Source: Balanoglossus misakiensis (Eukaryota > Animalia > Hemichordata). Taken from it: DNA of 64,000 bases. Both the position numbers and the translations under genes were made by a program. This document shows, piece after piece, positions 8,701 to 63,060 of the stretch. Location of the stretch: positions 2,164,999-2,228,998 of the forward strand of contig CM082596.2 of NCBI GenBank assembly GCA_040954595.2. Reading direction: 5' to 3'. Positions within the stretch are counted from its first letter, which is position 1; the number at the start of each line of letters is the position of its first letter. The notes under the pieces were generated by a model that was given only the letters and a program-made list of their open reading frames with translations, had not been told where the DNA came from and ran no database searches.

Positions 8701-9840
8701 TCCGCAAAGTCGAAAAATCCTCGATTTTTGACGATTTTCCTGAGCTATAACCCATGATTTTTATGAAAAAATCACCAAATTTCGAAAATCCGCAAAGTCG
8801 AAAAATCCTCGATTTTTGACGATTTTCCTGGGCTATAACCCATGATTTTTATGAAAAAATCACCAAATTTCGAAAATCCGCAAAGACGAAAAATCCTCGA
8901 TTTTTGACGATTTCCTGAGCTATAACCCATGATTTTTATGAAAAAATCACCAAATTTCGAAAATCCGCAAAGTCGAAAAATCCTCGATTTTTGACGATTT
9001 TCCTGAGCTATAACCCATGATTTTTATGAAAAAATCACCAAATTTCGAAAATCCGCAAAGTCGAAAAATCCTCGATTTTTGACGATTTTCCTGAGCTATA
9101 ACCCATGATTTTTATGAAAAAATCACCAAATTTCGAAAATCCGCAAAGTCGAAAAATCCTCGATTTTTGACGATTTTCCTGAGCTATAACCCATGATTTT
9201 TATGAAAAAATCACCAAATTTCGAAAATCCGCAAAGTCGAAAAATCCTCGATTTTTGACGATTTTCCTGAGCTATAACCCATGATTTTTATGAAAAAATC
9301 ACCAAATTTCGAAAATACGCAAAGTCGAAAAATCCTCGATTTTTGACGATTTTCCTGAGCTATAACCCATGATTTTTATGAAAAAATCACCAAATTTCGA
9401 AAATCCGCAAAGTCGAAAAATCCTCGATTTTTGACGATTTTCCTGAGCTATAACCCATGATTTTTATGAAAAAATCACCAAATTTCGAAAATCCGCAAAG
9501 TCGAAATATCCTCGATTTTTGACGATTTTCCTGAGCTATAACCCATGATTTTTTCAAAAAATCACCAAATTTCGAAAATCCGCAAAGTCGAAAAATCCTC
9601 GATTTTTGACGATTTTCCTGAGCTATAACCCATGATTTTTTCAAAAAATCACCAAATTTCGAAAATCCGCAAAGTCGAAAAATCCTCGATTTTTGACGAT
9701 TTTCCTGAGCTATAACCCATGATTTTTTTCAAAAAATGACCAAATTTCGAAAATCCGCAAAGTCGAAAAATCCTCGATTTTTGACGATTTTCCTGAGCTA
9801 TAACCCATGGTTTTTATGAAAAAATCACCAAATTTCGAAA
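8701..9840. repeat. Related 88-bp satellite subfamily (~13 copies)
   Basis: Unit GAGCTATAACCCATGATTTTTATGAAAAAATCACCAAATTTCGAAAATCCGCAAAGTCGAAAAATCCTCGATTTTTGACGATTTTCCT. GAGCTATAAC recurs at 9181 and 9269. It shares the GCTATAACCCATG core with the 87-bp unit and switches abruptly near 8700. Confidence 0.95.
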
Positions 9841-21400: not shown

Positions 21401-24400
21401 TCGACGTCTGCAGATTTAACTACAGTTGACACAACTGAAGGTACCACTACAATTGTCACAGGAACAACGGACGTTAGCACTTCTGGTACCACAGATACCA
21501 CGACACAAGATTCGACGTCTGCAGATTTAACTACAGTTGACACAACAGAAGGTACCACTACAATTGTCACAGGAACAACGGACGTTACCACTTCTGGTAC
21601 CACAGATACCACGACACAAGCTTCGACATCTGCAGATTTAACTTCAGCTGCCTTAACCGAAGTTACCGCTACACTTGTCACAACAACAGCAGAAGTAACC
21701 ACTATTGGCACAACAACAGTTGCAGCTGCCACTTCACAGGCTACGTTAGTGGGATCATCCCCTCCTGCAACGATTAGTGATGCAACTACTGTGCAAGCTG
21801 CAACCACAGCTGACGTAGGTACGACGATGACTCACACAGCTGCAACAGTGACAGAAGTATCTTCTTCTGGCACGACTCACGACGGCACCTCTAGCCATGC
21901 TACATCAACTGCTGGGACTGCTTCCACATCAACTTCAAGAGATATAACAAGTCAAATAACTACTATACCAGCTGCAACAACGTTGTCATTTGTATCGACA
22001 GTAAAAACAACTGCAGTTCTACCACCTGCAGCTACCACCAAATCTAACATTGTTGGACCACTTCCCGAAGAGGAAGAACCACTATGTAAGTATCTTGTGA
22101 CTTAAAAAACTAGTGTGTCTTGGATTTGTATACTACTCTTAAATTTAATCTTGGTTGATGTCTCAATAATTCATGACCTCATTTTATTAGATACAGAGGA
22201 ACCTGAAAAAACGTACTATTATGGCATGAAAGTTTCCACTTCTTTGAAAACTGAAGAGGAGTTTATGTCCGAGTTTGAAGCGACTGTAAGTATCGAGCCT
22301 TAGCTTCATTTTCTCGGTAACACCGTTGGGTGTGTACGGTATGTAATTTAGCATGGGTTAAAGTGCAGTTTGTTATTAGTTCTTCTGTAAGTAAATGAAG
22401 TATTGAAGCTTTAAATATTTTTTTTAATAGATATGCCCATTTTACGACATTGAGGAAGATGCCTTAAAAAACTGCACGGTCACTAACACAGATTGGTAAG
22501 CTTGACATTTTGTTTATCACTACCAACTATACCTGTCTTTTGTGTTTGAAGAGTATCTGGTAAAGATTTAGCCAATATCAAATTTGGTGGGAACTTTTTG
22601 ATTATGCCTGGGCATTATGTGGGTTTTCCAAGTTCCAACTGAAACAATTCCGATCTACATGAACCTCACATGCTACCCTTAAACACAGTCACGATTAATT
22701 TATTTGGGGAATTAGGCAAATTGCTTTCATCCATTGGTGACTGTTTGGTGTATTTTTCATCCTTTAGGGACGATACAGTCGTTAACAAGAAATCTCGGCG
22801 TGACGTCATCGTTGTACTGCTTAAAGAGGTTAACGTGGAATATAACGTAACGTATGACGGTACCAGCGAGACAGCGAAGTATGAGGCCGATGAACTCTAC
22901 GAGCAAACGGGAATAACGGAAGAGGTTGAGAACGGAACTCTCGGGGGAAACTTTACAGTGACCGAAGAGCCGTGTCAAGAGGGAAGTTCAGGCAACTGTG
23001 GAGGTACATAGTAGAGGTGTTTTCATTGTCGACAGAACGCAATGCTATTGTCAAAGACAAAAGTGGGCCATATTTAAAGTTGTCCTCGTTCCCGATACAA
23101 ATTATCATCTCTGAATTGTAACCAGCTGAAAGAAACTTATTGGCTTTTGCCGCATTTCATTCAAATTTCCAATTTGAAAATTTAGTCGTCGTTTTGGAGG
23201 TTAGTGTGCGTTCCTTCTGGGTTGGACTTATACGCTGCCCTACTATAGCTTTATTTCGTTATCATTATACAGCCGAGGACGTTGATTGGTGCGAAAACGC
23301 AATCTGCGATCCAACTATGGAACCGGTGGAGAAAGGGGAGAGTTGCGTATGCCAATCAGCATGTCTCGGGGATTACTGCAAAAACGACGCACTCTGCGAA
23401 CACAACGGGAACACTATAACGTGTTGGTAGGTCGAAAATTCCTTTTCTGGCGTTGAAACCTTCTGCTCGCGAACAATTTCATGAATTGTCGATGACCATA
23501 TTTTGCGCTAGAGCAGCAACTCCACGGAGTGTGTATCTTGTGCCCTAAATAATGTGTGCATGTGTGTGTATCATGGCTGACAATGATACTGCTACAAGTG
23601 ACATTCCCCCTTGATGCAAGAAATAAATGCCAAATACCTTGTATGGTTTACTTGCCATCTTCCCCACTCCAACAGGTAGGTGACGCTGCCTCTCCATAAC
23701 CATTCTCTTTCCAGGTGTCCAAACGACGCCGACAAAATATACATCGGTGATCAGTGTGAAACTGAAATCGCAAGGAGCATCATCATCCTGGTATTCAGCC
23801 TTTCGTTTGGTATCTTGATCATTGTCATCGTATTACTAGTTATCTGTTGTGCGAAACAGACACATGATAAGCGTCAAATGAAGAAATTGGACACAGAAAG
23901 TAACCATGACGACACAAAACAGTAAGTAAAGTCTCCGTCAGTTTGATGTTGCTTACTATCATTTAAAGTAACTTGTGAGGTTCACGACAAAACTTCGATT
24001 ACAGTCGTCACATGATTTGTTCTTTGTCGTTTAATTTCTACTTCAGCAAGAAAGTCAAGTCAACATCGGAAGTCTCATCTTCATATATAAATAATGCCTT
24101 TTACCGGGCCGACGATGAAACCACGCAGTCTGCCGTGGACACAGTGCATGACGACTTTTTCGCCAACACATGGATGGCCAACAAACGCCAATCAAGTGAT
24201 GACTGGGAGGAATTGTGGAACGCTACTGACAGCGACAATGACTGGAGGAAAGCTTTCCCCTTGACAGTTTCCAATCTGACAAATGCCAGTGGAGACGAAA
24301 CGACAACAGTAAGGAGTTCTAAACCCTTTAAGTTGTTTATGTTGCTCTGTTTATGTCTTTAGTTACCACAAACCAAATTATACATGCCACAAGAAGTTAT

Positions 24401-25810: not shown

Positions 25811-28800
25811 ATGGGTTACGTTCAGCAGATTAGTACTCAGGTGTCGCTGTGCGCGGTGCTGTTGGTTACGCTGTCGTGTGCCGGTAAGTTTATGTATTTG
25901 CTGTTTGCCACTGTAGACATATTTTCAATTTTAGACAATTGCGACGAAGGTCAAGTGTTTGCTCTAAGCTAAGAGCAAAATCACGCATATGCTGGAGTTT
26001 CAAGCCAGGGCCTACTCCCAAGATACCCGCATAAAAGTTACAATCCTTACATATTTCTCAAACTATGGGAACTAGTTTTTTTTAATATTGACAAAAACTT
26101 AGGATATGCCAACACTATAAATCACGAGAATTTAATTAAATGACAAATGCAACAATTGTGTAGTTTTGTGTCCATTTCTGGCATTTTCTCCATTTCATTT
26201 TTTCGAGTTAAGCCACTTGTATATTTTACACAACAAAGCCACTTCTACTTCTGATTTTTTTGAAGCCACATCACCGACATCACTATCAACTGACCTGAAT
26301 ATGTCGACAGCAGACCACAACACATTATCACAAACGATAATATCAATGAGTACTGCTGAAGCAACAAGTGGTCAGCCAAGCATAACTGATACAACAAGTG
26401 GTCAGCCCAGCATAACTGATACAACAACTGGTCAGCCCAGCACTACTGAAGCAACAAGTGGTCAAGCCACAACTACTGAAGCAACAAGTGGTCAGCCCAG
26501 CATAACTGATACAACAACTGGTCAGCCCAGCACTACTGAAGCAACAAGTGGTCAAGCCACAACTACTGAAGCAACAAGTGGTCAGCCAAGCATAACTGAT
26601 ACAACAAGTGGTCAGCCCAGCATAACTGATACAACAACTGGTCAGTCCAGCACTACTGAAGCAACAAGTGGTCAAGCCACAACTGCTGAAGCAACAAGTG
26701 GTCAGCCAAGCATAACTGATACAACAATTGGTCAGCCCAGCACAACAGAAGCAACAACTGGTCAGCCAAGCATAACTGATACAACAATTGGTCAGCCCAG
26801 CACAACAGAAGCAACAACTGGTCAGCCCAGCACTACTGATACAACAATTGGTCAGCCCAGCACAACAGAAGCAACAAGTGGTCAGCCCAGCACTACTGAT
26901 ACAACAATTGGTCAGCCCAGCACAACAGAAGCAACAACTGGTCAGCCCAGCACAACAGAAGCAACAACTGGTCAGTCCAGCACTACTGAAGCAACAAGTG
27001 GTCAAGCCACAAATACTGAAGCAACAAGTGGTCAGCCCAGCATAACTGATACAACAAGTAGTCAGCCCAGCATAACTGATACAACAAGTGGTCAGCCAAG
27101 CATAACTGATACAACAAGTGGTCAGCCCAGCAGTACTGAAGCAACAAGTGGTCAGCCCAGCATAACTGATACAACAAGTAGTCAAGCCACAACTACTGAA
27201 GCAACAAGTGGTCAGCCCAGCATAACTGATACAACAAGTAGTCAGCCCAGCATAACTGATACAACAAGTGGTCAGCCAAGCATAACTGATACAACAAGTG
27301 GTCAGCCCAGCAGTACTGAAGCAACAAGTGGTCAGCCAAGCATAACTGATACAACAAGTGGTCAGCCCAGCAGTACTGAAGCAACAAGTGGTCAGCCAAG
27401 CATAACTGATACAACAAGTGGTCAAGCCACAACTACTGAAGCAACAAGTGGTCAGCCCAGCATAACTGATACAACAAGTAGTCAGCCCAGCATAACTGAT
27501 GCAACAAGTGGTCAAGCCACAACTACTGAAGCAACAAGTGGTCAGCCCAGCATAACTGATACAACAAGTAGTCAGCCCAGCATAACTGATGCAACAAGTG
27601 GTCAAGCCACAACTACTGAAGCAACAAGTGGTCAGCCCAGCATAACTGATGCAACAAGTGGTCAGCCCAGCATAACTGATACAACAAGTGGTCAAGCCAC
27701 AAATACTGAAGCAACAAGTGGTCAGCCCAGCATAACTGATACAACAAGTAGTCAGCCCAGCATAACTGATACAACAAGTGGTCAAGCCACAAATACTGAA
27801 GCAACAACTGGTCAGCCCAGCATAACTGATACAACAAGTGGTCAGCCCGGCATAACTGATACAACAACTGGTCAGCCAAGTACAACAGAAGCAGCAACTG
27901 GTCAGCCCAGCAGTACTGAAGCAACAAGTAGTCAACCCACAACTACCGATGTAGCAAGTGGTCAACCCACTACAATATATACAAGTGGTGTTGTGTCCAT
28001 CGACCCAACAACACATTCGGAAGCAATGACATCACAAGCCAGTACAACACCAACGCGAACAACTAAAGAAGCAACAACATTTGCAAATGTAATTGGTCCT
28101 ATTCCTGAGGATGAAGACCCATCGTGTAAGTTCTTTTGCTATTCGGTGATTCATTTAATGGCAAAATCTTTAAAAGTGCTGAATGCACTTGCATTATCAC
28201 CTGCTTCAAATCATTTGCAGAAGTTACACATTTAAACAATGTATGGTTATCGTGTAGCAGAACATGATTTAGATTAAGAATGGTTCCTGGCAGTCTATGT
28301 AAACAGTAATTTCTGTTAATTTAGATGACGACCCTCCTGAGAAAACGTACAAGTATGACATGGGAGTGACAACAGATCTGGGGACTGAGCAGGAATTTAT
28401 CGAAGATTTCAAAAAAACGGTGAGTGTGAAAAACTATGACTTTGTAAAAAATTATTTTTGGTTGTGCAAGTTACAGATAGGAAGACATTGTACATTTACC
28501 CACTGGATGCTTACCCATGCATAATGGGAAATGTCTTGGTGGCAACCTCCCGGGGGTAGCCGTCCTAGCACCCAACAACAACCACACAAGAGTAATTGTA
28601 TCGAAATTTGTTCCTATCATTAGATATGTCCAAAATATGACCTAGAAGAAGGTGCTATGATTGATTGTTTGGTGACCTCTACAGACTGGTGAGTAAAGAA
28701 ATTAAGGAGGGTCGAAGATGACTCATGGAAGTATATATTTTACGTATAAATTAGAGGAACTCATTTATCAGCACACTTAAGAATGACGTTCCTTCGTGCG

Positions 28801-43529: not shown

Positions 43530-46403
43530 GTAAGATATATGTCACTTCCTTTGTTCATATGTGCACATAGTTGATGGCGCGCGCACGCCCAAAACCACTC
43601 CAAAATTCACGCGTAAGATTAAGGCTTATCGTCTATTAAAGCACAGTCCCTGTGATAGATAAACCGTGGTCTATACTACGAAGTTACAATTACAACAATG
43701 ATTGTCGCGGGTAAAGAAGGTCGACTTGGTGTTCGCAGGGCTGTGAAACATCGGTAACCTGGCAGCGACGAAGCTGGGATGATGCATTCGCCGCTGTCAG
43801 TTTCGACGTTTGATAAGCGAGGAAAAACGCCTCGTATAAAAATGATGTAAGCCCTAAAACATTATTTCGACAACGCGTAAGGTAAACATGGTAAACCATG
43901 GGTAAACCTACCTGATATGATTCGAGCGTCGAGCTTCGGTGTCCTCACTTGACCTCACGTGTCCTCAGGGATGCGCGCGTATAGCCTACAGTGTACAAAT
44001 AAAAGCAAACAAATAGTATACGTTTTCAGGTGTGCAGATTTAAAATGTTAATTAGCTATTGAATTTTGAATAAACCATACTGTGGGTACGGTTAATTTCT
44101 GTTTAGTCAGTACTTACAGGTGTTTTTAACGCGATGCAGAGCTTACGCACTCTCCAGCAGACGACGACTGTCCTTCCCCGCACCAAGTGGTCCATTGCGC
44201 ATGCCCATGGTTTAGACAGGCGAAGCTGTTTTATACGTATTATATTATAATGATTTAAATAATGTTCATATATTCATGTATCTGTATATTACATAGACAC
44301 TACAAACAATACGCGACCTTTTTTTCATTGTAGGATAACAATAGAACTCAAGCCCCCAGCACTATGACAGTAAGAATTCTTTCTAGTTCTGTTGATTTAC
44401 AATAATACTGCGATTTGTCCATGTGCAATTCCTCAGTTGTGGAGGGACAGGTATACATTATAGAGGCATCATTTGCATTTTTACGTTACAATTACACGTC
44501 TTTGTAATTTGAGACATACTCACCTATGGTCAATTATGTTTAACAGTGCAGCATCTTAACTTTTCCAATATCCATGTACATTTTCTTTCCAGGATGCCAC
44601 GCCGAAATATGCTCCATATGGATATCCAACAAGCGGAATGGTAAGGCACTATCAGTCTGTCGTGCTGTGTCCTCTTGTCATAATGTCCTGTACCCCCCCC
44701 CCCCAATTCCCTGAGTGCATCCAAATTGAACTTCAACCATTTGAAGATTGAGAAACTTCCTCTTACATGCGTGAGTCGACAACCGCCTAATTATGCAGTT
44801 TAGTAAAATAACAATGATCCTCTCATAACTCATTATTTCATGCTTTTTTTTACAGATTCCTCAGGCGGACTATTTGTAGAAGAATTTCATCAATACAACA
44901 TGAAGGTTTTATCCAAATAAACGCCACGCAATTCATAAGCTGCAGGATTGAAGAGGTTTCCGTCCAAGTGTCATGTCTGAATAGTGTGTGTGGAAATTCC
45001 AGGTTCTGAGGAACCATGAGCTTATTTTTGTCAAAATGGAAGACAAACGTCATGAATGAACTCAAAGAAAATTGCTGCACTAAATAGAAGAGATTTTTGC
45101 CAATTTTCACTCTTAAACCAGTTATGTTACTTACTCTGACTTTCACTATCAGGAAAATCTCAAACGAACAAGATTTCGAAAATGTATCATCTGGACAATA
45201 TATCCATCACAATAATCTGAAGATTCCTGAAAACTAAAATGGAGGTCAATACGTAGCAATTTCATTCTTTCTCATTGAAATAGCATGGTATATTTTAAAT
45301 ATCAGAAGTGGGGTTTCCTGTAAAACAATATGCTCATTGAACCCCCAAATCTTTTTTGTTTGAAACTGGGGTAGTTTTAAGTAGCAGTAAAGGTTTACCT
45401 TTAAAGTTTTAATTTCTAGGCTTCGTTTTTTTAAACTTTCGTTCATATTTTCAATTTTGTTTTGCAACACCTGCGCATCTGATCTTGATTTGTGGAAAAA
45501 TATAAGTCTGCAATCCTACCAAATCTACAAATGGGTTTTGCTACATAAATTACATAATAAATAAATTACATATCCTGTTTGAATAATCTAGGGCCCTAAA
45601 TCACATCATGCATGATGGATCCTGAATCTTCACTATAACACCACTGATACCATAAGCACTGCCTTGTTCTCTGCTTAACAAATTACTCCACACAAAACAT
45701 AAGGTTGTCAACTGGTTTATTCAAACTTTTGAGAATGAAGGACTGACACAAAATATACAGATACACCTCTGAGTTGACCTTGAACATGAAAGAATGTGAC
45801 ACATCATAGAAATAATTATATGCAAATTTGATCGAGACTGGACAAAGACAGTTGTCAGTTGCTGGCAAAAATTCTGCAGTTTTGAATTTTAATCGATATA
45901 AAGCTTACACTTACAAAAAAAGCAAGGCCACTAATGACTATTTATTGACAAAGCACAATAAACTGTTTGGCTAGGCCCCAGCACGATGGGCATTGCACAA
46001 GGCAGGTATGGGAAAATGTACTTCAAAATATAAAGACTCAATATTGCATTACCACACAATCACTGCAGTATCCCCAGGACAAACAGTTTTTGAGAAACTG
46101 CATTTTGATACAAAAAAGCAAACCACAAAATGTTCATGTTAGTACATTTTGAAGAGGTGGCCACTACCACAGGTTTGATTGAGGTAGCGGGAAAAGCTTA
46201 AGTAAGCGCAACTGATGAACTGTTTTTAAACTACCGCTCAAAAATTTGTTCCTTTTTTTCAACCTCTGCAAGTTTGTGAAAAATACAGGCAAAAAAGATT
46301 AGAAAAGCAGTCTGAGAAAAAAAAAAGTTAAGTTTTTAAACCAATTCTGTTTTTGATTGGAGTCTCACATTAACCTCTATCCTTGACAGGGGGTCTAGGC
46401 ATC

Positions 46404-49400
46404 TTATGTGATTGGGCAGACACCATTCTTGGCAGCCTCGTGTCCGGATTCAACCAGGTGTTCTATGAAGACGTCGTTGAGGGCGATAGATGTTTCCATA
46501 ACATCCTCGTACTTGGGAAGTTCACAAGTTCCACTCTCCAGCATCTGTTTTACCTGGAAGAATATTTTCATAATGCTTTAAATTTTTGGCTTGGAAGAAA
46601 ACTTTAAAAGGGAGGGGGGAGAGAGAGAGGTGTCAGGGTGCAAGAGAAGTCAGAGTGAAAAGAGTAAAACAAGGCAAAAGAATTCCACAAAATATCCGTG
46701 ATTACCAGTGCTCGTACGTGATTTCATGACCTCTCACAATTAATTCTCTCGCACTGACGGTCAAAATAAACAGAGTTGACAAATCTATTACTAGTATTTT
46801 CTATGGTAAAGTGGGACCTCTAAAGAGGGAACAGAGGGTGAAAGGTTTACGGGGAAAAAACAATCACAAGGGTAATGTAATAAAGTAGAATAACACTCCA
46901 CTTACCATGAGATGAGTAAATCTGCTGACCATAAGCGATGGCAGCTCCTTTCTCTCCCATTCCCAGTTGTTTTCCGCAAAACTTCCAAACAAAGTTCCCT
47001 TTGATGGCAAAACAAATCAAGAGAGACTAAACATGAGTGTTGTGTTTTCATTTTTATTTCTCATTGTTTGATCTTCAGGTTTCTGGGTCTGACATTAGAT
47101 AACCCCCCCCCCCCCCCACCAACAGCTGATGTCCGTTGACCATGCACATGCATGTCTGATTTTCATTGCCAATGTCAAGTATGAAGAGGATTGGAATTTG
47201 TGCACTCCAATTCATCCTGGACGAAATATATGTGAACTCTATGAAAATGTCAAATTAACAGAATCCTACAGAACTCAATAGCACATTTTTTCGTGAGAGT
47301 AAACTTTTAATAAAACTCACATTTTGTTCATTCCAGAACACGTCAGCATTGGGGCTTTTGATCCGCAATATTCTTCCCTCTGCCATGGGTCCTGGTAGGC
47401 ATACAATAGAAACATCAGCTGTTCCCTTCTCTGTTTTAATCTGTCCCTTCAAAGTACCAAAAATCTCAACAAAATCCTATTAAAGAGAGAAAGAATTACA
47501 GCTGTTAAAGTTAGAAGAGATTATCTTGAGAAATGCGTTGAACCTTTGCTCTTTGGTCAGAAATTAGTCAAAATACACAACACGTATATCTTTGGAATTG
47601 CCAATGGGGAAAACTTTTATGGGGACAGTGGTGGCATGTGCGAAAAGAGGCATCATGAAGTTACTTCTTACCTGTCTCTTGGAGGCTTCATAACCAGGGT
47701 TGAATGTGCTGCCATTGAACTCGATTGCCTTGTTGTCATTCAGCCATTTGGCCAGAACTATCATGTGGAGTCCGTTACAACACAGGCCCCAGCCCTGGCC
47801 ATGGATATGAAAATTCACAGGACCCTGGGAATAGGCGAGTAGCAGAACATTTAATGTACAAGTCCATCTTGTATGGTTACAACTTGTCATGATGTGAACA
47901 AGATGAAAATGGAACTCCAGAGAAAGGATGAATGTAATAAACCAGATTTTATTCCATGGATTTTGTTACCTGTATTTTTTCCTTCAAATATTTCCCAAGA
48001 GGAAATGCAGCATATTGGCTGTTGACATAAGCGTTCACGCCAGACTTTTTCAACAGAGCAAGGACTGCCCGGTGATCCTCAGCTGTTTGGAACAGCACCT
48101 GGAAAATATGGCATAGAGAACATTTACATTTTAAACTGTGTACATTGTAAAGGACAGGTAGCATGAAGATGAGGTGGAGGGTGAGATCCAATATGTCTGT
48201 CTGTCTCATGTATGTACAGCTGTATGTATGTATGTATGTATGTATGTATGTATGTATGTATGTATGTATGTATGTATGTATGTATGTATGTATGTATGTA
48301 TGTATGTATGTATGTATGTATGTATGTATCTATGTATCTATGTATGTATCTATGTATCTATGTATCTATGTATCTATGTACATGTATGTGTACACGTATC
48401 GCAAACTTACCTTCTCCAGAATCATATGAGACACCTTACACTGATCAAGCACGTTGGTGACAACTTTACGTCTGACTGTGGATGTGGTGGCAATGATCAC
48501 CACATCAAACTTTCTCCCTGTGGTCACTTCATCCAGAGACTGCACGTAGACAACTTTGGTGCGAGGATTGGCTTTCGCTTCGTTGTCAAAAATCGACTTG
48601 GCACGGGTTCGGCATGCTCTGAAAAAGAGATGCAGAATATACACATGTATGTAGAGGATGTATTTTCTGTCAATAAATTATTTGCAGTAGACAATGTATT
48701 AGAAACTGAAAGTATATCCATGTTTTTTTGTATTGGGAAATGCACTTGTAGCAAAACATTTGTTAACGTTTTTACACAGATATGTGCAGGTGCAAATTGT
48801 TGGTCGATACATTATTGCAATCTTTATTACTATTGCTTGTGATGACAAAGAATTAAAAAACAGTTGGAAGTTTCCTTTTATCATGCTTTTCATGCATATT
48901 TTACTTCATTTGCATATCCTGTGAAAAATACCAGACTGGTTTAATTTTACTGGCAACAACAGTGTAACAGGTGGTGCCATATGTTATCGTGCAAATCAGC
49001 TGAACAAATATTTAAGGTCTATTCTGGTCATTTTAGTGAGGCTATTTTTATCCATAAAGAGTGTTTGAATTCTAGCACAAACACAGCGTCGAAAATGAAA
49101 CGAAGCATTAAATTTCAAAAAGCATTTCACATATCAAAAAGCATGCAATGTTAGACTTTCTCATGTTACTTACTCGACAGGTTCCACTACCACTACATCA
49201 ACAGCGATGTCTAAGCACGCCAGAGATTGCAGGTGTCGAGAACCAATGTTACCCGCGCCTGAGAAAATTAATTAAAATTAAAGATGCAGGCAGCGTAAGC
49301 AGGGCCCAAGTTATTGTGCAAAGATAAAACACTGCAGGGTAACCATATGGGTGACCTTATTTTCTGACATACACCCCCCCCCCCCACCTGGTATGTATTC

Positions 49401-52400
49401 CCACTGTAAGCTTCTTTGTGAGGTGGGTCCAGTCGGCTGGACAAAAATAAAGAAATCCACAAAAATGAGGTAATAAAACACAGTCGTAAAATTTGGAGTC
49501 CTTTGGAGTTTGGGTGTGTAATAGGAATGTAGTGAACCAAACAGTTACAAAAGGATGTTGAATTTATTACATCAGGGTGGGGAACACAGAGTTCAAAAGG
49601 TTGAGAATAGTACTTGTGAGAGGGGTTATACTTGTATGCCAGACTATGACAGAATATACTTTTCATGGCAGTAGGGGAAAGTATTGTTACCAATATTCAA
49701 ATCCAAATCAAGATCGACTTATAAACATACCCCCAGGAACATCTAAAAAGAGACCTTCTATAGATCAGCAGGTTAAAAAGTAAGAATGTACCCAAATTGC
49801 CCAAACACCTTAACAAAGAAAGTCCCCATTGCTTAAATTATGAGTGAGTGAGTGAGTGGGCCAATGGAGAAGGAAACGTTGCACACAATACTGTCTATAC
49901 CTTCCCAGTTTGCAAGCTCCTTTTTCTGCACACATCTCCAGAAAAGGCCATGCAGCCTGGACGGTGCCTACTGTTTCCTGTGTCAAGCCCAATTTGACTT
50001 GTGTTCCTGTTCACATTGACTTTGTTCCATGTATGTGACACTTACCAACGATCAAGACAGCAGGCAATTTGGACATATCAGTGCCACGCATCGGCTCATA
50101 ATACTTCTGCACGTGTTCTAGTTGATGACTCAGTGGCAACAGGTCTTCATCATCAGGGTTATCCAAGAAAGTCTTTTAAAGGAATTACAGTCAAATCTGT
50201 TAAACCAGACACCAAAGGAACTGAAGAAATTGTTCGGTGTTACAGAAGTGTCCAATTAACAGAGGTTGAGTGATTCTTTGTGAAAGGGACGGCAAATGTG
50301 TTTGGTATATGGGTTGCCAGATTAGACAGGGTTTACTGAACACTATATGATGAGACCGACACATTCATAGTATGAACAGAATCTTTTGACACAGAAAACT
50401 GCATTATAAGTCAGGCAAACATTCACATACAGCACACTGTCAAAAATTCCAAGTTAAATACCAGGGCATACGTGGCATTGCAACATATCATGTCAGCTTA
50501 CTGAATATGACGTGTTCACTTTTGAGTATTCGAGTGCAACAGGATATGGATATATTTAAACAAGCTCTTTCATACAAAGCAAAGGAGGTTAAATATGCTC
50601 AAGGACACTGCATATCTGTGGTGGAAATCTCAAGTGTGGTGTCACATACATGTACAGCCATTTAATTAACATGATGGGCTACATGTTGTTTGTCCCGTGT
50701 GACATGAAAATGTCCTCCCATATAAACTGCCCCGCCATGCGAGATCTAGCTTGCAGGGTCTATTACCTCCTGCTGTCAAAATGAAGTAAAAATGAAACTA
50801 CAAAGTGCTCACCTTGGTCTGCAGCCACAAGCCCGGCTTGAATTTCTTGTCTAGGCTGTCATCTATTTCAATTTCTTCCACTTTTACAGAACCAAGCCTA
50901 GTGACATGCAACTTCTCAAGTGGTCTGAAGATGTAGCGGTTCTTGCGAGTCAGAACCTAGCAATCGACAGAACGGGAGATGGTCAAAATGAAAGTATGGA
51001 AAACATGGAAAGAAATCTCAAAAAGTTGCAACTGAGATACAGTGGTTGAATACCAGATCTGAACTTGGAATTCCAGATGGATTGCATTGACTACTGTTTG
51101 AACAAAGATCACACACATTTTCACCTTGCAAACTAAACTGGGAAGCAATTGCACAATGAGGTATATCAAAGTTTTGTGTAAAAGTGCTTAGTTCTTATCA
51201 TTTTTCAGCTGATCTGCACATTTTGATGGAAATCATATTTAAAATCAGCGTGCATGCATACAGACAGAAAGACAGACAGAAATAGATACCATACATAATG
51301 ATTATCAACATATGTCAAATAATCCTGTAAGCTCCTTTAGGATAATAGGAGCTTAAAATGAACATGTGTATTGTAGTGCAAGACTCAGTTTTCCATGCAG
51401 TGGCATGTCCCTTCCCGATTTTACCTATGCTCCTTAATTACCAGTATGGGGGTAAGACAGACAATACTGTATCAAAAAACACTTGGGGAGAGCAGGACAC
51501 TGGTAATACTCACCTCAAGCCACCATCTTCCTGGTGCTGCCCAGTTAGCATGGTAAGAGAAGAGGGCATTCTTTTCAGTGATGCCAGATCCTACCCAGAT
51601 GGAGGCCTGTGGATGCCAGAACACTTCACCTTGTCCAGCATGGTGACACTGCAGATCTTTCGGTTGTCCTCCCAGGAAAAATGCCAAATCTAGGACGTGA
51701 CTGTTTCCAAGGAACCAGCTTTGTTTTACTGTTACCGGTATATTGGGAAAAAGACAAGATATGTATTGACAGGTACATTACACAGGAAGTGATTAAGATG
51801 ACTTGGTAAGCATCCTGTTGCTATGGTAATTAACCAAGTCTCGCCACATCTCACTATGAGCAGAAAATCATTTACTAAGCCTATGGGCCACGTAGACTCT
51901 TGTACATTTAGCTTCACTCACAGTCACAGTGAATAACCTGATCTGCTATTTAGCTACAGATAAATGACACGATGTAACCCCAAATGAATAGCCCTAGGCT
52001 TTGAGCACAGACAGGTTAGCTCATGAATACTCTGGTTACTAGTACCAACAAGCACGCATTGTGTGTCTACAATATAACTCATTCAGAAAAACAGGAGATC
52101 CAGTCTGTACATGTAGCATAGCTTGAGGACCATAACCACCAAAAGCATGACGTCAATAAATTACCTATCCCAACCTAGCAAATAAATCTTCAATGACATG
52201 CACGTAGTGAACAGGTGTCCAGTCTAATATTAACCATACGTGAATGCAATTTCGATTACACAATTATTTCTATACTTTTTGGGTATCATGGAAATGTTGC
52301 ATGTTTCAACAAAACTCACCTGACTCAGGATGAGGGAGACCACCAATGATATGAGACCATTCCGTAAATTCAAACACAAATGATGTTATGCCACCGTCTG

Positions 52401-52848
52401 CCTCTGCCAATTCACGCGCCTTCCTAACCGATGAATAGAATCGCCGGTTGTAGGCCATTCGTATCTTGATATCTCGGCCATCAGCTTTAGCACTCTCAGC
52501 AACTTTCAGCACTTCAGCGATTTCTTCGCTATTTCTCCCACCAGGTTTCTCGAAAAGGATTCGGTTTACTCCGTGTTGAATGAGCTTGATGGTGCAGCTA
52601 GCAAGACTCGGGATACTTACAGTCACTATAGCATTGACCGAGGTGTTGTTAGGAGAGATCGGATTGGCCGCTAGAAAAGGCTCAACTCCACCCAGGTGCA
52701 CGGAGTGGCCAGTCTTCTCTTCAAACTTGGCAGCACTTTCAGCTCCGCGACCAATCACCTCGTACTTGACGCCAAGATCCGTCAAGACTTTGGCATACTC
52801 GGCAGCATGGACCCCAGCACCAACCAGCCATACAACAGCGTCAGACAT
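46404..52848 (-). CDS. Tandem fusion of two bacterial-type Gfo/Idh/MocA-family NAD(P)-dependent oxidoreductases, ~662 aa, 11 coding exons
   Basis: Minus-strand exons 52848-52320, 51728-51514, 50956-50813, 50172-50046, 49258-49174, 48618-48411, 48098-47970, 47824-47672, 47476-47321, 46998-46906, 46553-46404. All introns are GT-AG with compatible phases, total 1989 nt, no internal stop. Unit 1: VWLVGAGVHA, FEKPGG, AYNRRF, FEFTEWSH, WFLGNSHVLDLAF, ANWAAPGRW, FRPLEKL, FKPGL. Unit 2: VLIVGAGNIGSRHLQSL, IIATTS, ILEKVLFQ, WGLCCNGLH, SKR, C-terminal CPIT*. Minus-strand AATAAA at 45946-45941. Confidence 0.9.
48222..48390. repeat. (TATG)n / (TATC)n microsatellite in an oxidoreductase intron
   Basis: Pure TATG run followed by TATGTATC units. 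It produces spurious MYVC ORFs. Confidence 0.95.
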
Positions 52849-55183
52849 TGTTACCAGTCACACTGAAAATTACAGATATGAATAAATGCAATCGTGTCGG
52901 CCAGGCAGGCAACAGATGCCAAAAAAATGACATGATTAGATTTTCACTTCATTGATTAGAAGCCACTTTGGCCCAGCCATTCAAAGACTTGGCATTACTA
53001 TCTCAGTATGCAGTCTGTCTGGGTCTAGATTTGTTGCGGGGTCAACGTCCGTAGCCCTACCCCATTCCAAACATACAGTCAGGGGAGTGGTAGGGCTACG
53101 GATCCGCAGAAAGGCCCAGCCTTACGAGTTACGTGTACACCGGGTGTCCGGCTTTGGCTACTCCCGGTACAGAGGGGCACAGCCTGCAGCCTAGCTAGCC
53201 GGACACTCTCGTACAACTAACAAGTAGAGCTCCCGGCGCGCCCACACCGTCGTCAAGGCAGTGTGTGAAATGTACATGACTCCAAAGCGAAATTGACAAT
53301 TTTAGTTCACACACTTTTTGAGCAACCGTGGCCGTTGTTCACAACACACGTTGATACACGCAACTATATTACGTAATTTGTACACGCAGACAGTCTTCAC
53401 ACAATCATGAATACCGTTATATGCATATCGCATGTATCACTTTCGATGGCACCGGCGCGGCTGGCCCGGCCCTAGCTACACGCCGAAATAATGAATTTCA
53501 TTTCATTCGCCTCACCTTTGCTTGGACCGTATGGAACACAGTGTAACTGTAAGAACAACCCAGCAGGTGATGAACAGCAAACACAATCAGTAGTATGGTC
53601 AGTTTTAAACAACCACACAGTCACTACCTTCGACCAGAGCATATGCACACAGTTTTATACACCCCACCCGACAGGAACTTGGACTGTTCCATTTTACACA
53701 CGTAATATATACAGTTACAGCAGCCCCATCGCGAAGCGATCGTATCTCGTGCCTTTGGTCTCTCACACACATCCTGCTGCAGTGTTGTCTAATTGATATC
53801 GACATCAAACGCCTATCTTATTACTAGTACAAACCTGTCAGACTGTAAATGCATTGCAACCCGATATTATCAAAGGAATGCATGGGTTTCGAAATATATG
53901 ACTAGTACTAGCGCGCCTCACCTTTACTTCGACCGTATTATGAATGTAAGAATCCACCGACTGAAATTGAAGGGATGGACTGCAAATCTAATCAGGTAAA
54001 TGGCCAGAACCACGCTACACTATCCCAGCCAGAACCTCGCAAACACAGTCAACAAAGAATGCAAAATCAGACCACGCCAAGATATGAGACGCGCCCCCGG
54101 ACAAACCGGTAATATGGACTGCGCCCTCAAACGTGTGATGTCATCACCATCCCCTATTACCCTAGAGGACTACCACCAAATATATAATACAATGTAATAC
54201 ATTTTCTGTGCTTGGGACAGTCTGTTACGATTGTTTATATAAATATATTTTTAAATGATATTATTTGTCAATGCTGTTTCCTGTATTCATTTGCGTATAG
54301 TATGGTGCTCCCATGTTCATGTTTGTCTTCCTTGATGAGGGGTAACCATGGATACACAGGTTTGACGTGGCAGTTTATTGCACTGTGGCCTGTGCAACTA
54401 GGTCATTCAAACGCCAACAACTTCATATGCAAAAAAAGACCATTTGTGCGATATTACTTCCTCAAAGCTAATTTTATTTACAAACACTGTTCAATCTAAA
54501 CACAACAAGTTATCGGATCTGGTCATAAAGCATTCGCTTATTGCTCTTCTGCAAACAAGATCACTACATCAACTTCATCAAGCCAGCAAATTAAAATAAC
54601 TTGAATCAAGCAAATTCAAACAGACCGTGTCTTTTTTTGAAAACCATGGTACACATCCATAAAACACTTCTCCCCCAGACTGGTGAAAAATAAGCCCTAT
54701 AGTGACATTCTAAGTGACAAGCTATTCTTCGCATTTCCCTGTGAATTGGTCCAGTAGCATCTTTCTTTCACCCCTATTTCCCAGTAATCTGGTCCAACTT
54801 CATCACAGAAAACAATGGACTTGGACCAAACCATGGTGGCGAAAGGGTTAAACAGGACTGAAAAAAAAGATTGGTACATTCTGCAGAACATGTCTTGAGT
54901 CTTTGCTGGTATTCGGAAGTTCAGGGGTGTTGTTCCAAGTTGCAAAGTTTGGATAAGCATCTCTTGAGGAAACATACAGCAAGTACTGTTGTCAGGTACA
55001 GCAACATGCTATGATCAACAATTTGTATCTTCTCGAGACATCTACTTTGAAATTCGTTGATGCACACTACAGCGCTGCACTGTAAAGTTCCCCATCAGAA
55101 TGATGTCTGCATTTACGTTCTTGAAATTTTGAAATCAATGCAATATTTCAGTCCAAGATGGGTTAATGGGGATAAAACTCCTA

Positions 55184-55773
55184 TTAGTGGTGATCATTCT
55201 TCTTATCCTTTTCTAGGTATTTTTCCACGCCAACAGCCGCTATAAAAAGGATAGCACCCCACTGGAAACCACGGAATATCATTCTTGGCAAGCTGACACC
55301 ACGAATCAGTGGTTGGTACCGCCACACCTCATTCCTGCCAAAAAAAGAAGAAACAGCAAGTCACAATTGTTACCTGACACTTCTGAATAGTGATGTGCTG
55401 ATGTAAACATTCATAAGTTTAGCCTAGTTGGCAACAGAGATCATGTATGATGTCCAATTTCAAAGAAGTGAATCATTCTTTTTCAATCACGTCGTATGAT
55501 TCCTTTATATTGGGGCATTTCATGTTTTAAAATTTAAATGCCAGATTCAGCTTTAATAATGGAATTATTGGTAAACAGTTTATAAAATAGATGATTTGGT
55601 AGCTTGCAGTCTAGTGTCAATGTGACCTGTGCAGCTGTCTGGAATTTCACTAACCTCAACCAGGGGTCTTTTAATCCTTTCCTAGCGAGTAATTCTTCTA
55701 CTTCTTTCAATTCTGGTACATCTTTGACCTGCCACTTTCTCCAATCCGGTATTTCATACGGCAATTTCCCCAT
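55184..55773 (-). CDS. NDUFB3: NADH:ubiquinone oxidoreductase subunit B3 (complex I B12), 89 aa, 2 coding exons
   Basis: Exons 55773-55655 and 55334-55184 give MGKLPYEIPDWRKWQVKDVPELKEVEELLARKGLKDPWLRNEVWRYQPLIRGVSLPRMIFRGFQWGAILFIAAVGVEKYLEKDKKNDHH. This contains the NDUFB3 signature LxxxGLxDPWxRNExWRY and a single TM segment. Confidence 0.95.
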
Positions 55774-56812: not shown

Positions 56813-56912
56813 ATAGGTAATAATTGGCTTTAATATGATTTGTATATTCATATAGGTTATAATCTTAATAACTGTTCCCATTTCTTTCTATTACAGAAAA
56901 TCTAAGTCCATC

Positions 56913-59900
56913 ATGTATTGCACAGACGCACAGATGGATTTGAACTACCGTAAGATTCTCAAAAGCGTAGATGAGAACATGATGGCTAGAGATTTCAACT
57001 CACTTAAGTTTCTATGCCAGGACTACATCCCTGCCGGAAAACTCGAAAATGCCAGGAAACCCAGGGATATTTTCCAGGAGCTTGAATACAAGGGATACCT
57101 AGGACCTGGGGAGAAACTTTACTTTCTGGCAGACCTCTTGCAAAAGATTCACAGAGTGGATCTGATTAAAAAGTTGGGATTAGGAAAACCCAGGGATGTG
57201 CATCTGAAGATTGAAAGAGATGGACGGCCAGGCCCTCAGTTTACTCCCTTTAGGTAAAGTGACATTTGATGAATTTGTGTTATTTTAAATGAGAGTGAAT
57301 CTCATACAGACTTAGGGCATGTGGTCTGTTGGTAAGATTACCAGAGATGTAAATAATGAGTAATTTTAATTGCATTCATTTCATTTTGCAGGTTGCTGTT
57401 ACTCTCAGTGTGCGACAATTTGACAAACGATGATTTGGAGACACTTAAATTCTACTGTCATCCGTTTATCAGCAAGGGTACAATGGATGAGATGAAAGAT
57501 GCGCCCTCAATGTTGTCATTCCTGGAACAGTCTGCCCGTATCGGAGAAGATGATGTGGATTTCTTGGCTGATATGATTGACTCGCTGGAAAATGAACAGT
57601 TGCTTGGGAAAGTGAATGCTTATAAAGGTAGACTAATTGCCTTACCCTTTCTTGTAGTTTTGTGTTCAAACAGCAAAAAAACACTAATGAAATTTGTTGT
57701 CCAACTGTCATCTGTTGTTTATTTTTTATAGCAAATATAGGTTCATCATCATCATCAGACCACGAGGAGACAAAATTGTACCAGCCAATACAGCCGCAGC
57801 ACAGAATGGTACCGAGTGGAAGAGGTTTCAACGACATCCCACGATACGCAGCAATTCCTCAAGCAGAGATACCACTGATGCCACCATCATATTTTATGAG
57901 TGGCAACTACCGAATGCCGAAGACCCCGTACAACCGCCAAATGTGCCAACAGCCAGTTAGTTATCCACCAGTTGAACAAAGTGGGCGCTATATTGGAGTC
58001 GTGCCAGCTGAACCTGATGCAAGAGTTGCTACTCCCCATCCACAGACACCAGTGCCAGGTATGTGGGAACAATTTCATCTGCAGATCCTTAACAACACCC
58101 TGCTCAACACATCATAGTCATGTGAGAAGCATCATCTTAAAACCATAAACCTTTTTCTGGAAACTGCTTCAAATTGTGTTACAGAGAGACATCTTAAAAC
58201 TGCTGTCAGAATTCCACTAGTGAGAATTTATGTCAAAACATTCACACGGCGATATGTTTGTAGAATTTGCGTTGGAAATTTCTTGAAGATGAGACATTTC
58301 TAGACGTTATCACCTTTTGTGTTTGCAGCTCAAGCAGGCGTTGTAGAAGGAGAAGCACCCAGTCAAACACCAACGTGTGTAAGTAGCCACCAACAGCCAG
58401 AAGAAAACATGGCCGCACCCGCAAACCAAGAGGAGAACGAGGTGGCAGTCACAGAGAGGCAGAGTCAACAGCCGCAAGAAAACGTGACAGTGTCTCAACC
58501 CGGTAGCCTGGTTGAGGAAAGTGAACGTGTTCCAAGTCAGCCGCAAGAGTTTGCAGAGAATTCCGTAGTGGTGGCAAACAGAATTCCAGGTATTTCAGTG
58601 TTTTGTGTGAAGTCACACACCTTAGATAAATAAGGTGTCGCATGATAGAGAAAATGTGTCTCTCTGTTGGGTGTTGTCTCAATAATCTCTGCAAACTGAA
58701 TACCTCTAAAGACCGAACAGCAACTTGGTGATATGTTTGTGTGAACAAGACATCTGTATGTTTACATTTCCAGGAGAGCTGAATATCGTGCGAGGTCATC
58801 CACAAAGTGCACGTCCAGTGGAAAATGTCCAGGTGACGGAGTCATCCCAAGAAAATCAGGAATTGTCGACGCGGTTGCAGAGATTAAATTTTGAACAGGA
58901 AAAAATTGAGATGCCATCGTATAACATGAAGACAAGTCCACTCGGTTTGTGTATTATAATCAGCAATGAGCATTTCCATGTCGACAGGCGTTATGAGTCA
59001 AGTCGTCCATTAGAAGACAGAAAAGGAACAAAGGTTGATAGAGGTAAAAATGACATTGCATGTGGATGTGTGTGTGTATCCATCTACCTACATGTATCCA
59101 TATCTATCTTTGTTCTTTCTAGGTAGAGTTGACTTTCTGATTGGCTAACTAGCTGGCTACATGTATATGTATTTATCGCATCTACCTGAGCAACCTCCCG
59201 TAATTCTTCTATACCTACCTACCTTTACAGTGAACTTGCCCACCCACCAACCTTACTACAAATAAAATGCATTTTCTCTCTTTATGATTTGTTTTCAGAT
59301 AACTTGTTTTACCTTTTCCGGGGGCTGGATTTTGTATTAGATGTAAGAAATGATCTCACAGCGAAACAAATGCGTGATTGGCTGGATGCCATTGGGAGAC
59401 AGGATCACTCTGGATTCAGCTGTTTTGTCTGCTGTATTCTTAGTCATGGCTCGGCTGGCACTGTGTATGGTGCTGATGGGGTCCCTGTTGATGTGGGTGA
59501 CCTGACCCGCAGTGTCAAAGGGTCTCGCTGCCCTACTCTGGTTGGAAAGCCTAAACTCTATTTCATGCAGGCCTGTCAAGGTCGCCGTCAACAAACTGGA
59601 GTGCAGTTGGAGATCGACAGCATTGATGATCAACCGGCAGACAGCATCCCGAATGAAGCAGACTTCCTTTTCGGTTATGCTACTGTTCCGGGGTTTGTCT
59701 CCTACCGCAGTAAGACACAGGGATCCTGGTACATCACGAAACTAGTGGAATGCATTGATAAGTATCATGAGCAGTACGACCTCTTGAGTATCATGGTCAA
59801 GGTCAATGAAGAGGTTGCCAAGGCGATTGCAAAAACACAACAAGGTGAAAGGAAGCAAGTTCCCGCGCCATTAGTTACCTTGCGCAGGAAAGTTTTCCTC

Positions 59901-59927
59901 CAGCCAATTCAAAAACCAGTTGTCTAG
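56913..59927 (+). CDS. CASP8: Caspase-8/10-like initiator caspase (two death effector domains, long Pro/Gln/Glu linker, catalytic domain), ~684 aa, 6 coding exons
   Basis: Exons 56913-57253, 57392-57627, 57741(or 57732)-58058, 58329-58589, 58774-59043, 59299-59927. DED1 LKFLCQDYIP...LLQKIHRVDLI, DED2 LKFYC..., GLCIIISNEHF, RKGTKVD, CCILSHG (catalytic His), KPKLYFMQACQG (catalytic Cys), LEID cleavage site, GSWYI. The symbol is family-level because CASP8 versus CASP10 is a vertebrate split. Confidence 0.92.
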
Positions 59928-61324: not shown

Positions 61325-63060
61325 ATGAGGACATGCATATTTCTGGCCCTGGTAGGAGTTGCCTTAGGTAAGAAAACTTGTGAAATGGCAAGAAACATAA
61401 AAAACAATAACTTTTTCTGATGTATTTATGGAGCTCTTTACGAAAGTGTCTTTTGCATCATTTCATAAACTTTGCACTTGCGACCATAAGTTTAATTTTG
61501 TTTTTAATAACTCTGTCGATGTTATGATTGAAAGGTATGAAAGAACCCTATCAGGAAGAGCCATGTCTTAGCAATGGTGGAACCTGTGTCGAGACTGCAT
61601 GCTGTCCCAGTAATAACTACGTCAGCGGACAATGTCCAACACAGTCAGACGGAATCAAATGTTGTTACAGCACACCGACGTGTCGTAAGTTTCATTAAAA
61701 CGAAAAACTAATAATTTCAAACACTTCATTGTTTTTTAGTTCTTTTTTAAAATTGTCTTTTTTATTATTCGTGAAATAAACTTAGATCTGAAACATTAGA
61801 AGACTTGGAAATACTTCTCAATATTTTGTAAGGCTTCGACTATTTGATCCCATCTCCACTGCAGCCACCAATATACTCTCTGTCTCTAACTCCCCCTCTA
61901 GCTTACAACGAATCACCATGTCAGGATAATGGTGGCGTCTGTGAATATGACTATTGCTGTGATAACTACCAGTCTGGAGAATGTCCATCGCAAGCTGGCA
62001 ACATCAAGTGCTGCTACAGCACTCGTAGGTGTTACATGTGCCAATTTTTAATATTTATTCATATTTCCATATTCATATTTTAGTTTTAGTACACAATATG
62101 CTCTATCAGAGAGTGTCATAAGGTATAGTAAATTCCTTTGAAAACTTGCAACATTCAGAAAGTAACTTCAATTCAGCTACATAGTGAACTTTTCTCTCTC
62201 TCTCTCAGCTACTTGTAGTGGCAGTGGCTATGTACCAGAGGCCTGTTTAGAATGCATTTGTTTTGTTGAAAGCAACTGTTGCATGTTAAGTGGAGGACCT
62301 ACTGGCCTTGAGCACTGCGTATATGATGTCACCAGTTACTCATGCGGACCTTATCAAATCAAAGAAGACTATTGGATAGATGCCCAGATGTACGGTGGTA
62401 GCTTGATGGGAGGTAAGGTCATAGTTTGTCAGTTTTAACATTACATGGTGATGGGATATACTCTCACACTGTATTACTAGAAAATATTGACAAACACGTT
62501 TTTCAATGGACTGGTAGATGCATTGTGAATGCATGGTTGTAGCCTGACACACCATCCTACTCTATACTGCCACCTATAATTTACATATATACCTATATAT
62601 GGACAAAGGGAAGTGGTGTGTCTAAATGTTTGAACGATCTGCTAAATTTGAAATTTCCATGGTGACAGTGGTTATTATTGCAAACACATATGTACCTTTA
62701 GTATTACCACTGAAAGGATTGTTCAAATAACGCATATTACTGAGATGTACCCAAAAGAATTTGTCTAATTTCCATGTTACAATATACTGTACAGAAAAAC
62801 ATATTCTTCCTTGCTTGACAGATTGGGGAACATGCACAGCCGATTGGGGATGCTCAGAAGACTGTGTGAATGGATACATGCAACGATACGCAACTGAGGC
62901 CAGACTCGGCACCACACCGACCTGCGAGCATTTCTCTCGTATCCACAACGGCGGACCCAATGGCCACGAAAATCCAAACACCGTCGCTTACTGGGAAAAG
63001 GTTTTGGATTGCCTCAACCAGGGAAGTTGCTGTGAACCGTATCCACCAACTTGGTGTTAA
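61325..63060 (+). CDS. Invertebrate-type (i-type/destabilase) lysozyme with two N-terminal Cys-rich defensin-like modules, ~252 aa, 5 exons
   Basis: Exons 61325-61367 (signal MRTCIFLALVGVALG), 61535-61684, 61902-62024, 62209-62412, 62822-63060. Signature motifs CLECICFVES, YDVTSYSCGPYQIKEDYWID, CSEDCVNGYMQRY, CEHFSRIHNGGPNG. AATAAA at 63238. Confidence 0.92.

Follow-up and report, generated by a model that had tools for sequence, protein, structure and literature searches.

The gene analysed here lies on the minus strand (46404-52848) of a 64,000-nucleotide stretch of DNA from the acorn worm Balanoglossus misakiensis (GenBank assembly GCA_040954595.2, contig CM082596.2, positions 2,164,999 to 2,228,998; the whole stretch is hereafter the window) and encodes a single chain made of two oxidoreductase units of the Gfo/Idh/MocA family, U1 (residues 1-328) and U2 (residues 332-662). 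We give about an even chance to the proposal that this protein is a one-chain redox epimerase acting on a nonulosonic sugar, and that the fusion of its units took place in microbial eukaryotes, ahead of the gene's presence in the worm lineage. The prokaryotic homologues are almost always neighbouring genes in the reverse order, the same U1-U2 fusion occurs in protists, and trees unite the fused proteins, all of which points to a fusion older than the worm gene.

An intact two-unit gene and its conservation in three enteropneust genera

Joined by their coordinates, 11 coding exons and 10 introns (all GT-AG, 145-787 nt) yield a spliced frame of 1989 nt, i.e., 662 residues and a stop, that is free of internal stops. 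Splicing in this gene model is supported by orthologue proteins: RefSeq entries listed as uncharacterised, 664 aa long in Ptychodera flava and 660 aa in Glandiceps talaboti, align end to end with the window protein, gaps being of 1-2 residues only, and a chance frame is thereby ruled out. Ptychodera is the nearest relative (81% identity over 638 columns; U1 87.8%, U2 74.3%), the corresponding values for Glandiceps being 82.6% (U1) and 61.1% (U2). The Glandiceps orthologue has two isoforms (660 and 668 aa) differing only at the N-terminus, and Saccoglossus kowalevskii contributes a partial fused model (LOC100367900). The gene is intact and conserved in three enteropneust genera, with the Saccoglossus copy partial.

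Coding exon 1 (52320..52848, residues 1-176; all exons are on the minus strand) carries the U1 Rossmann fold with its GxGxxA and Gly-Arg cofactor motifs together with EKP, YNRRF, and FTEW, exon 2 (51514..51728, residues 177-248) carries Asn185, His187, and Asp190, and exon 3 (50813..50956, residues 249-296) continues U1. The junction of the units falls inside exon 4 (50046..50172, residues 297-338), which holds the end of U1, a short linker (about 50067-50085), and the first strand of U2; as this is away from any intron, the fusion did not come about through an intron whose splicing joined two adjacent genes. U2 then extends through exon 5 (49174..49258, residues 339-366; GxGxxG and the acidic Glu364), exon 6 (48411..48618, residues 367-436, as far as Glu435-Lys436), exon 7 (47970..48098, residues 437-479, where the prokaryotic Arg466 is replaced), exon 8 (47672..47824, residues 480-530, with Asn496 and His499 present and the prokaryotic Asp502 replaced), exon 9 (47321..47476, residues 531-582), exon 10 (46906..46998, residues 583-613), and exon 11 (46404..46553, residues 614-662 and the stop), which encodes the C-terminus.

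The original prediction, made from the letters alone, had described this 11-exon, 662-residue frame as two complete Gfo/Idh/MocA units, too divergent to be an internal duplication and unlike the usual animal members of the family, and all of this stands. The motifs quoted for both units are present. The halves share no BLASTP similarity (best E 0.47), and profiles of their prokaryotic homologues are only distantly related (hhalign probability 96.6, 21% identity); an internal duplication in the worm is rejected, and U1 and U2 appear to be old paralogues. A structure was predicted for the orthologue from Ptychodera, not for the window protein itself. It shows two well-formed units (predicted local distance difference test 88.9), which match two different bacterial clusters of single-unit proteins, one over residues 5-328 and the other over 333-664, both at a template modelling (TM) score of 0.97 by row. 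All listed Foldseek matches of this model are of Gfo/Idh/MocA family or fold (TM by target 0.57-0.77), the best solved structures being GnnA, glucuronide-3-dehydrogenase, NanOx, and YjhC at 12-16% identity. The whole fold, a Rossmann domain followed by an alpha/beta domain at the C-terminus, is thus predicted for each unit. PF01408 scores 40.3 bits on the Ptychodera orthologue (cut-off 24) and 20.6 bits, below the cut-off, on exon 1 of the window alone, with prokaryotic homologues at 30.7 (U1) and 40.2 bits (U2); no NCBIfam family reaches its cut-off for either unit. DHDH and BLVRA have solved structures, and neither they nor GFOD1 are among the five PDB sequences found at E up to 1 (none at E <0.05), GFOD1 being a fold match only, at 12% identity.

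The active-site residues are shared with prokaryotes. A catalytic Lys (in EK) and a His make up the Gfo/Idh/MocA consensus, and in Rossmann folds an acidic residue after strand 2 marks an NAD-type site, Gly-Arg an NADP-type one. Counted over 123 prokaryotic U1/U2 pairs, U1 has Gly33 in 121, Arg34 in 118, and both Lys101 and His187 in all 123, and U2 has an acidic residue at 364 in 120 and Lys436 and His499 in all 123; the window protein keeps every one of them. The cofactor motifs of prokaryotic pairs and fused proteins read GxGxxA plus Gly-Arg after strand 2 in U1, and GxGxxG plus an acidic residue at that place in U2.

The prokaryotic U2-U1 pair and its gene context

Loci were collected for U1 from genomes (the best 80 of 545 matches) and for U2 from metagenomes (the best 80 of 467). 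The units are neighbours in 69 of the 80 genome loci, as the original prediction had anticipated, and in 68 of these they stand in the order U2-U1, opposite to that of the worm; the remainder comprise two loci with U2 before U1 but apart, two with U1 before U2 and apart, and seven with a single unit. The metagenome loci look alike (51 adjacent and two apart as U2-U1, one adjacent and none apart as U1-U2, 26 with a single unit, many of these being short contigs), so that adjacent U1-U2 order is seen in just two of 160 loci (L057 and L130). The pair occurs across many bacterial phyla and in archaea, while U2 is rare where genomes were surveyed, being found in 2 of 400 gammaproteobacterial genomes, one of them the centre genome. 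The best prokaryotic identities to the window protein are 55.2% (U1) and 37.7% (U2). These proteins, annotated as ‘predicted dehydrogenase’ or ‘Gfo/Idh/MocA family oxidoreductase’, are direct homologues with the same catalytic and cofactor residues, but they are encoded by separate, intronless genes in reverse order, and their U2 keeps Arg466 and Asp502.

The association with nonulosonic-acid genes, also part of the original prediction, is borne out. All 56 genome loci of at least 15 kb contain U2, and with it neuB (46), neuC (45), a CBS-nucleotidyltransferase (43), and neuA (41), together with members of the LegB-like (43) and LegC-like (39) clusters, counts that are upper bounds as these clusters also hold other dehydratases and aminotransferases; context labels were taken from one representative per cluster. 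Flippases and sialyltransferase-like genes mark the clusters as biosynthetic. Three plasmid records were found; in the annotated one, U2 and U1 are unfused and follow each other in that order within a cluster holding legB-legC-neuC-neuB.

The closest described analogue is the ElaA/ElaC system of Acinetobacter baumannii KL49, proposed to epimerise C8: ElaA would oxidise a hydroxyl of the CMP (cytidine monophosphate)-linked nonulosonate and a second enzyme would re-reduce it (PMC13656337). In both systems a Gfo/Idh/MocA protein would act as oxidase beside a re-reducing partner, and both reside in legionaminic-acid clusters; however, the partner of ElaA is an SDR protein (PMC13656337), whereas U1 and U2 are both Gfo/Idh/MocA proteins, and the cassette co-occurs with U2-U1 rather than replacing it, the worm pair being in addition fused and eukaryotic. 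ElaA is recognised by Lys91, Trp155-Arg156, and His181 and by the position of its gene between lgaF and the CMP-synthetase gene (PMC13656337). The order GFO-neuA-SDR stands beside the pair in 15 of the 127 loci with both units, and 5 of those 15 GFO proteins have the Lys/Trp-Arg/His spacing of ElaA (91, 155, and 181 in L154), while 0 of 134 U1 and 0 of 153 U2 have it. The identification of U1 or U2 with ElaA is rejected, as it is another GFO gene at these loci that carries the spacing.

The acinetaminic-acid module (aciA-aciB-aciC-aciD; PMC9676051) resembles neuA-SDR-U2-U1 in gene order. A Kaptive identity of 99.543% in PMC9676051 would correspond to 218 matches in 219 residues, a length insufficient for U1 or U2, and the 85.948% of a further row to 263 in 306; no family or length for AciC or AciD was found in PMC4487303, PMC12053666, or PMC9676051. 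A correspondence of the pair with AciC/AciD is no more than possible.

Several loci depart from the common pattern. U2 is fused behind a GDSL-esterase domain in two prokaryotic proteins of 1224 and 1247 aa (L114, 5322-8996; L120, 5247-8990), one U1 (P0265) has a GDSL-like C-terminal part, and a GDSL gene lies near the pair in 17 of the 56 long loci. In Chryseomicrobium (L067, 3859-8872) the pair follows neuB-neuC-neuA only, near flagellin genes, which hints weakly that it may also act on N-acetylneuraminic acid (Neu5Ac), genes upstream on this contig being broken. The Escherichia coli locus gave no blastn match to a known O-antigen. A viral source was considered and rejected: it would rest on one contig only (L161, IMG/VR, 54960 bp), filed as viral, in which an unfused U2-U1 pair sits in a dense glycan cluster with neuB and an SDR gene and which is either virus or misfiled host DNA.

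Place of the fusion and route to acorn worms

An exhaustive search of representatives at 50% identity, with the best 150 listed, returned seven non-animal clusters with U1-U2 order: Lentomonas sp. LEN2 (EukProt; a euglenid), Chromera velia Cvel_3343 (an alveolate), and five metagenome clusters. In most of them the short linker is the same. The Lentomonas and Chromera proteins agree with that of the worm in order, linker, shared derived residues, and side of the tree; they differ from it in identity (42-49% in U1, 31-36% in U2), in keeping the U2 Asp that worms lack three residues after the catalytic His, and in being uncharacterised, incomplete entries.

All 11 fused rows separate from 78 unfused pairs (those kept of 123 after removal of close ones) with a Shimodaira-Hasegawa-like approximate likelihood ratio test (SH-aLRT) support of 94. 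U1 alone places 10 of the 11 together (SH-aLRT 89), and U2 alone 11 of 13 rows, six from worms and five others (SH-aLRT 95), with the long branches P0248 and P0298 outside. A mixture model with bootstrap, from which P0248, P0298, and every second unfused pair were left out, splits nine fused from 39 unfused sequences with support 100/99. Two derived residues follow the same division: U1 carries His14 in 8 of the 9 fused rows, where prokaryotic sequences have Met (117 of 123), and U2 carries Val606 in 7 of 9, where they have Gln (112 of 123). It is thus likely, on sequence evidence, that the fusion was a single event predating the animal gene. The original prediction of an operon fragment that fused within the animal is not supported, given the reversed prokaryotic order, the same fusion in Chromera, Lentomonas, and five further clusters, and the trees; the foreign origin that it also proposed survives, as eukaryotic homologues are patchy and not broadly distributed, yet with another likely route and place of fusion.

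With a confidence somewhat better than even, we prefer a transfer of the fused gene, preceding the divergence of the enteropneust families, from a microbial eukaryote to vertical inheritance accompanied by numerous losses as the way in which the worms came by it. No non-hemichordate animal name is present among the best 120 matches listed per search, and none from echinoderms, chordates, protostomes, cnidarians, sponges, or fungi, although most matches are without names and unannotated genomes lie outside this coverage. As a close echinoderm or chordate orthologue would rank at the top, its absence from the listed matches is informative with respect to annotated proteins. The methods of PMC4729200 recognise horizontally acquired genes by a better microbial match, by an animal-gene locus with introns, and by nesting in a donor clade. 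Here, the microbial match is far above that of other animals among the matches listed, and the locus has introns and lies among animal genes, but the worm sequences do not nest within a donor clade, so that this last measure does not tell transfer from differential loss. The CMAH-type deuterostome genes of the same study are similar in their introns, animal neighbours, marine-microbe or microbial-eukaryote relatives, and sialic-acid context, but they are deuterostome-wide (PMC4729200), whereas the fusion is seen only in enteropneusts among the animals listed. Two supplement tables of that article hold no Gfo, MocA, or PF01408 entry, and a listing elsewhere in the supplement is possible. Chromera has a GT29 sialyltransferase (PMC5811610), and hemichordates have expanded families of sialic-acid enzymes (PMC4729200).

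Several observations tell against the history that we prefer. P0248 falls outside the fused group in the U1-only tree, and among the fused rows the worms branch off before all others (99/89) instead of nesting within them, so that no donor is identified. Unfused prokaryotic proteins are closer to the worm by raw identity than the protist fusions are, and long-branch attraction may therefore have helped to group the fused sequences. Of the seven fused clusters outside animals, only two are eukaryotes with a name, and one of these, from Lentomonas, was assembled from transcripts and might derive from prey. The main competitor is vertical descent, i.e., an old eukaryotic fusion belonging to an ancestral sialylation toolkit, kept by acorn worms and a few protists and lost elsewhere. 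The outside position of the worm clade and the scatter of holders over distant eukaryote groups would suit it, as would the argument for a sialic-acid pathway as old as the earliest eukaryotes and lost many times since (PMC5811610); nonetheless, it requires many independent losses, leaves the absence of the other animal and fungal groups from the listed matches to be explained in the same way, and sits uneasily with a U1 still 55% identical to prokaryotic proteins, and we regard it as unlikely, if well worth keeping in view. Far less credible is that a piece of a prokaryotic two-gene operon entered the acorn-worm ancestor directly, was fused there, and gained introns, the protist fusions being independent: the top raw identities to unfused proteins, the absence of other named animals among the matches listed, the two loci with worm-like gene order, and the length of coding exon 1 (529 nt) speak for such a route, against which stand the almost invariably reversed prokaryotic order, the recurrence of the same order and short linker in other fused proteins, and the trees and derived residues that unite these. 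That the gene is an artefact, through contamination or a gene model joining two genes, is barely conceivable; the model is a prediction from sequence, but it has ten GT-AG introns, a junction within an exon, animal-type neighbours (a caspase with two DED domains and a destabilase lysozyme), a GC content at third codon positions of 0.49 equal to that of the neighbouring caspase exon, and counterparts annotated as the same single protein in two other species.

A possible sialic-acid epimerase and its surroundings

The idea of a coupled, epimerase-like oxidase/reductase, raised in the original prediction, fits the cofactor motifs. We postulate that U2, with GxGxxG and an acidic residue, oxidises a sugar hydroxyl with NAD+, and that U1, with GxGxxA and Gly-Arg, uses NADPH to reduce the resulting keto sugar from its opposite face. 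The use of two cofactor pools would make the inversion one-way, and the fusion would keep the keto sugar local. In the worm, the substrate may be Neu5Ac, N-glycolylneuraminic acid (Neu5Gc), or 2-keto-3-deoxynononic acid (Kdn), free or CMP-linked, and cytosolic; no membrane segment stands out at the N-terminus of the window protein, which suggests a cytosolic enzyme.

The inverted carbon would most likely be C4. In legionaminic acid, only the hydroxyls at C4 and C8 are free, and at those loci where an ElaA-type C8 cassette lies alongside the pair a second C8 epimerase would be redundant, leaving C4. Legionaminic and neuraminic acid both have the D-glycero-D-galacto configuration (PMC5811610), and the pathway to 4-epilegionaminic acid had not been elucidated as of 2017 (PMC5595891). 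Legionella offers a further lead. Non-1 serogroups of L. pneumophila reportedly carry a D-glycero-D-talo polymer. Serogroups Sg6 and Sg12 have the adjacent dehydrogenases Lp6_781 and Lp6_782, without close counterparts in Sg1 (PMC3694923); the gene order in the Legionellaceae loci that we read is unlike that of Sg6, and the lead is a tentative one. U2 was found in 3 of 24 genomes of one genus and U1-level matches in 6 of 203 scored family genomes. In two Legionellaceae loci (L169, 15392-16360; L170, 15636-16604), a U2 gene without adjacent U1 directly precedes a sialyltransferase-like gene. A bolder version, in which the prokaryotic pair is the missing nonulosonic C4 epimerase and the worm copy, acquired in fused form from microbial eukaryotes, makes 4-epi-sialic acid for mucins and so shields mucus from microbial sialidases, is speculative and, in our estimate, improbable.

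A number of findings weigh on this functional assignment. Sugar and carbon are both assigned from gene context, and no measured activity was found for any enzyme of the U1 or U2 subfamilies in the literature or in family and structure databases. In 10 of the 56 long loci, e.g., that of Sporocytophaga, neuB is absent within the fetched flanks. Legionaminic-acid genes were not found in the genomes of the 4-epimer isolates (PMC5595891), which argues against C4, given that the pair is mostly located in legionaminic clusters. The orthologue model has a predicted TM score of 0.55, so that the mutual placement of the units is not fixed. Arg466 and Asp502, invariant in all 123 prokaryotic U2, are gone from 6 of 6 acorn-worm U2, and U2 evolves faster than U1; the worm enzyme may therefore have shifted. 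The fused row P0248 likewise lacks both residues, which suggests that they form a structural pair. It is possible, though we hold it doubtful, that the function is another one: inversion or modification at C8, or at C7 via an 8-keto intermediate, action on a precursor hexose, or, in the worm, catabolism of nonulosonic acids from bacteria in the diet, much as by NanOx/YjhC, which act on sialic acid. Such alternatives gain from the 21 of 46 neuB loci that have neither GFO nor SDR, where the pair could replace them, from loci without neu genes, from fold matches that include NanOx, YjhC, and hexose 3-dehydrogenases, from the two residues missing in worm U2, and from the existence of U2-only paralogues (Saccoglossus, Glandiceps), one of which carries a hydrophobic segment at its N-terminus. 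They lose from the redundancy of a second C8 epimerase beside the ElaA-type cassette, from the biosynthetic character of the clusters, and from the unspecific nature of the fold matches; NanOx/YjhC and GnnA share the Gfo/Idh/MocA fold and are sugar oxidoreductases, but they are single units, similar at fold level only (14-16% identity).

The U2-only paralogues are P0122 (Glandiceps LOC144445258), whose hydrophobic N-terminal segment resembles a type II membrane anchor and would direct an unpaired dehydrogenase into the secretory pathway, and P0121 (Saccoglossus LOC102805586), which may be an incomplete model. Flanking the coding exons, a putative splice acceptor (AG at 52864-52863) followed by a putative 14 nt of 5' untranslated region precedes the ATG (52849..52864, minus strand), and two similar candidate donors of non-coding first exons (ends at about 53516 and 53922; 53514..53922, minus strand) lie upstream, the combination suggesting at least one further non-coding 5' exon. 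Candidate polyadenylation hexamers, consensus matches only, are located 3' of the stop at 45946, 45893, and 45721 (45721..45946, minus strand). Just downstream of the gene, about five mucin-like genes form a run on the plus strand (13000-43300), in which long Thr/Ser-rich tandem-repeat exons (19161-21680 and 26356-27969) precede small exons of Cys-rich and membrane-like type; Pfam gives only weak EGF and membrane-segment matches in it. These genes could be carriers of the sugar or chance neighbours. On the other side lie a small two-exon gene (55185-55773, minus strand), presumably encoding the complex I subunit NDUFB3, with no Pfam match for the frame of its first exon, the caspase-8-like gene (two DED and a caspase domain, 56856-59927), and the invertebrate-type lysozyme (destabilase, 62166-63060). 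The window begins with a satellite array (1-11576) whose 87-bp unit is present in about 115 copies (97% match); degraded units extend to 11576.

No description of the gene was found in the literature, by identifier or by topic, with subscription papers outside the coverage; in keeping with the original prediction, which knew of none, the acorn-worm fusion gene is apparently undescribed so far. It ties a widespread, uncharacterised prokaryotic gene pair to one eukaryotic protein, and its source would be mistaken if it were read from the best BLAST hit. Discussions of microbial-type sialic-acid genes in deuterostomes gain a further gene, one restricted, among the animals listed, to hemichordates. 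A single enzyme may thereby bear on two questions, the synthesis of 4-epi-nonulosonic acids (PMC5595891) and the occurrence of sialic-acid epimers in an animal. If the 4-epi proposal is true, acorn worms would display a surface sugar that is a sialic-acid stereoisomer new to animals; if the substrate differs, the protein is still an undescribed fusion of two oxidoreductases, conserved among acorn worms.

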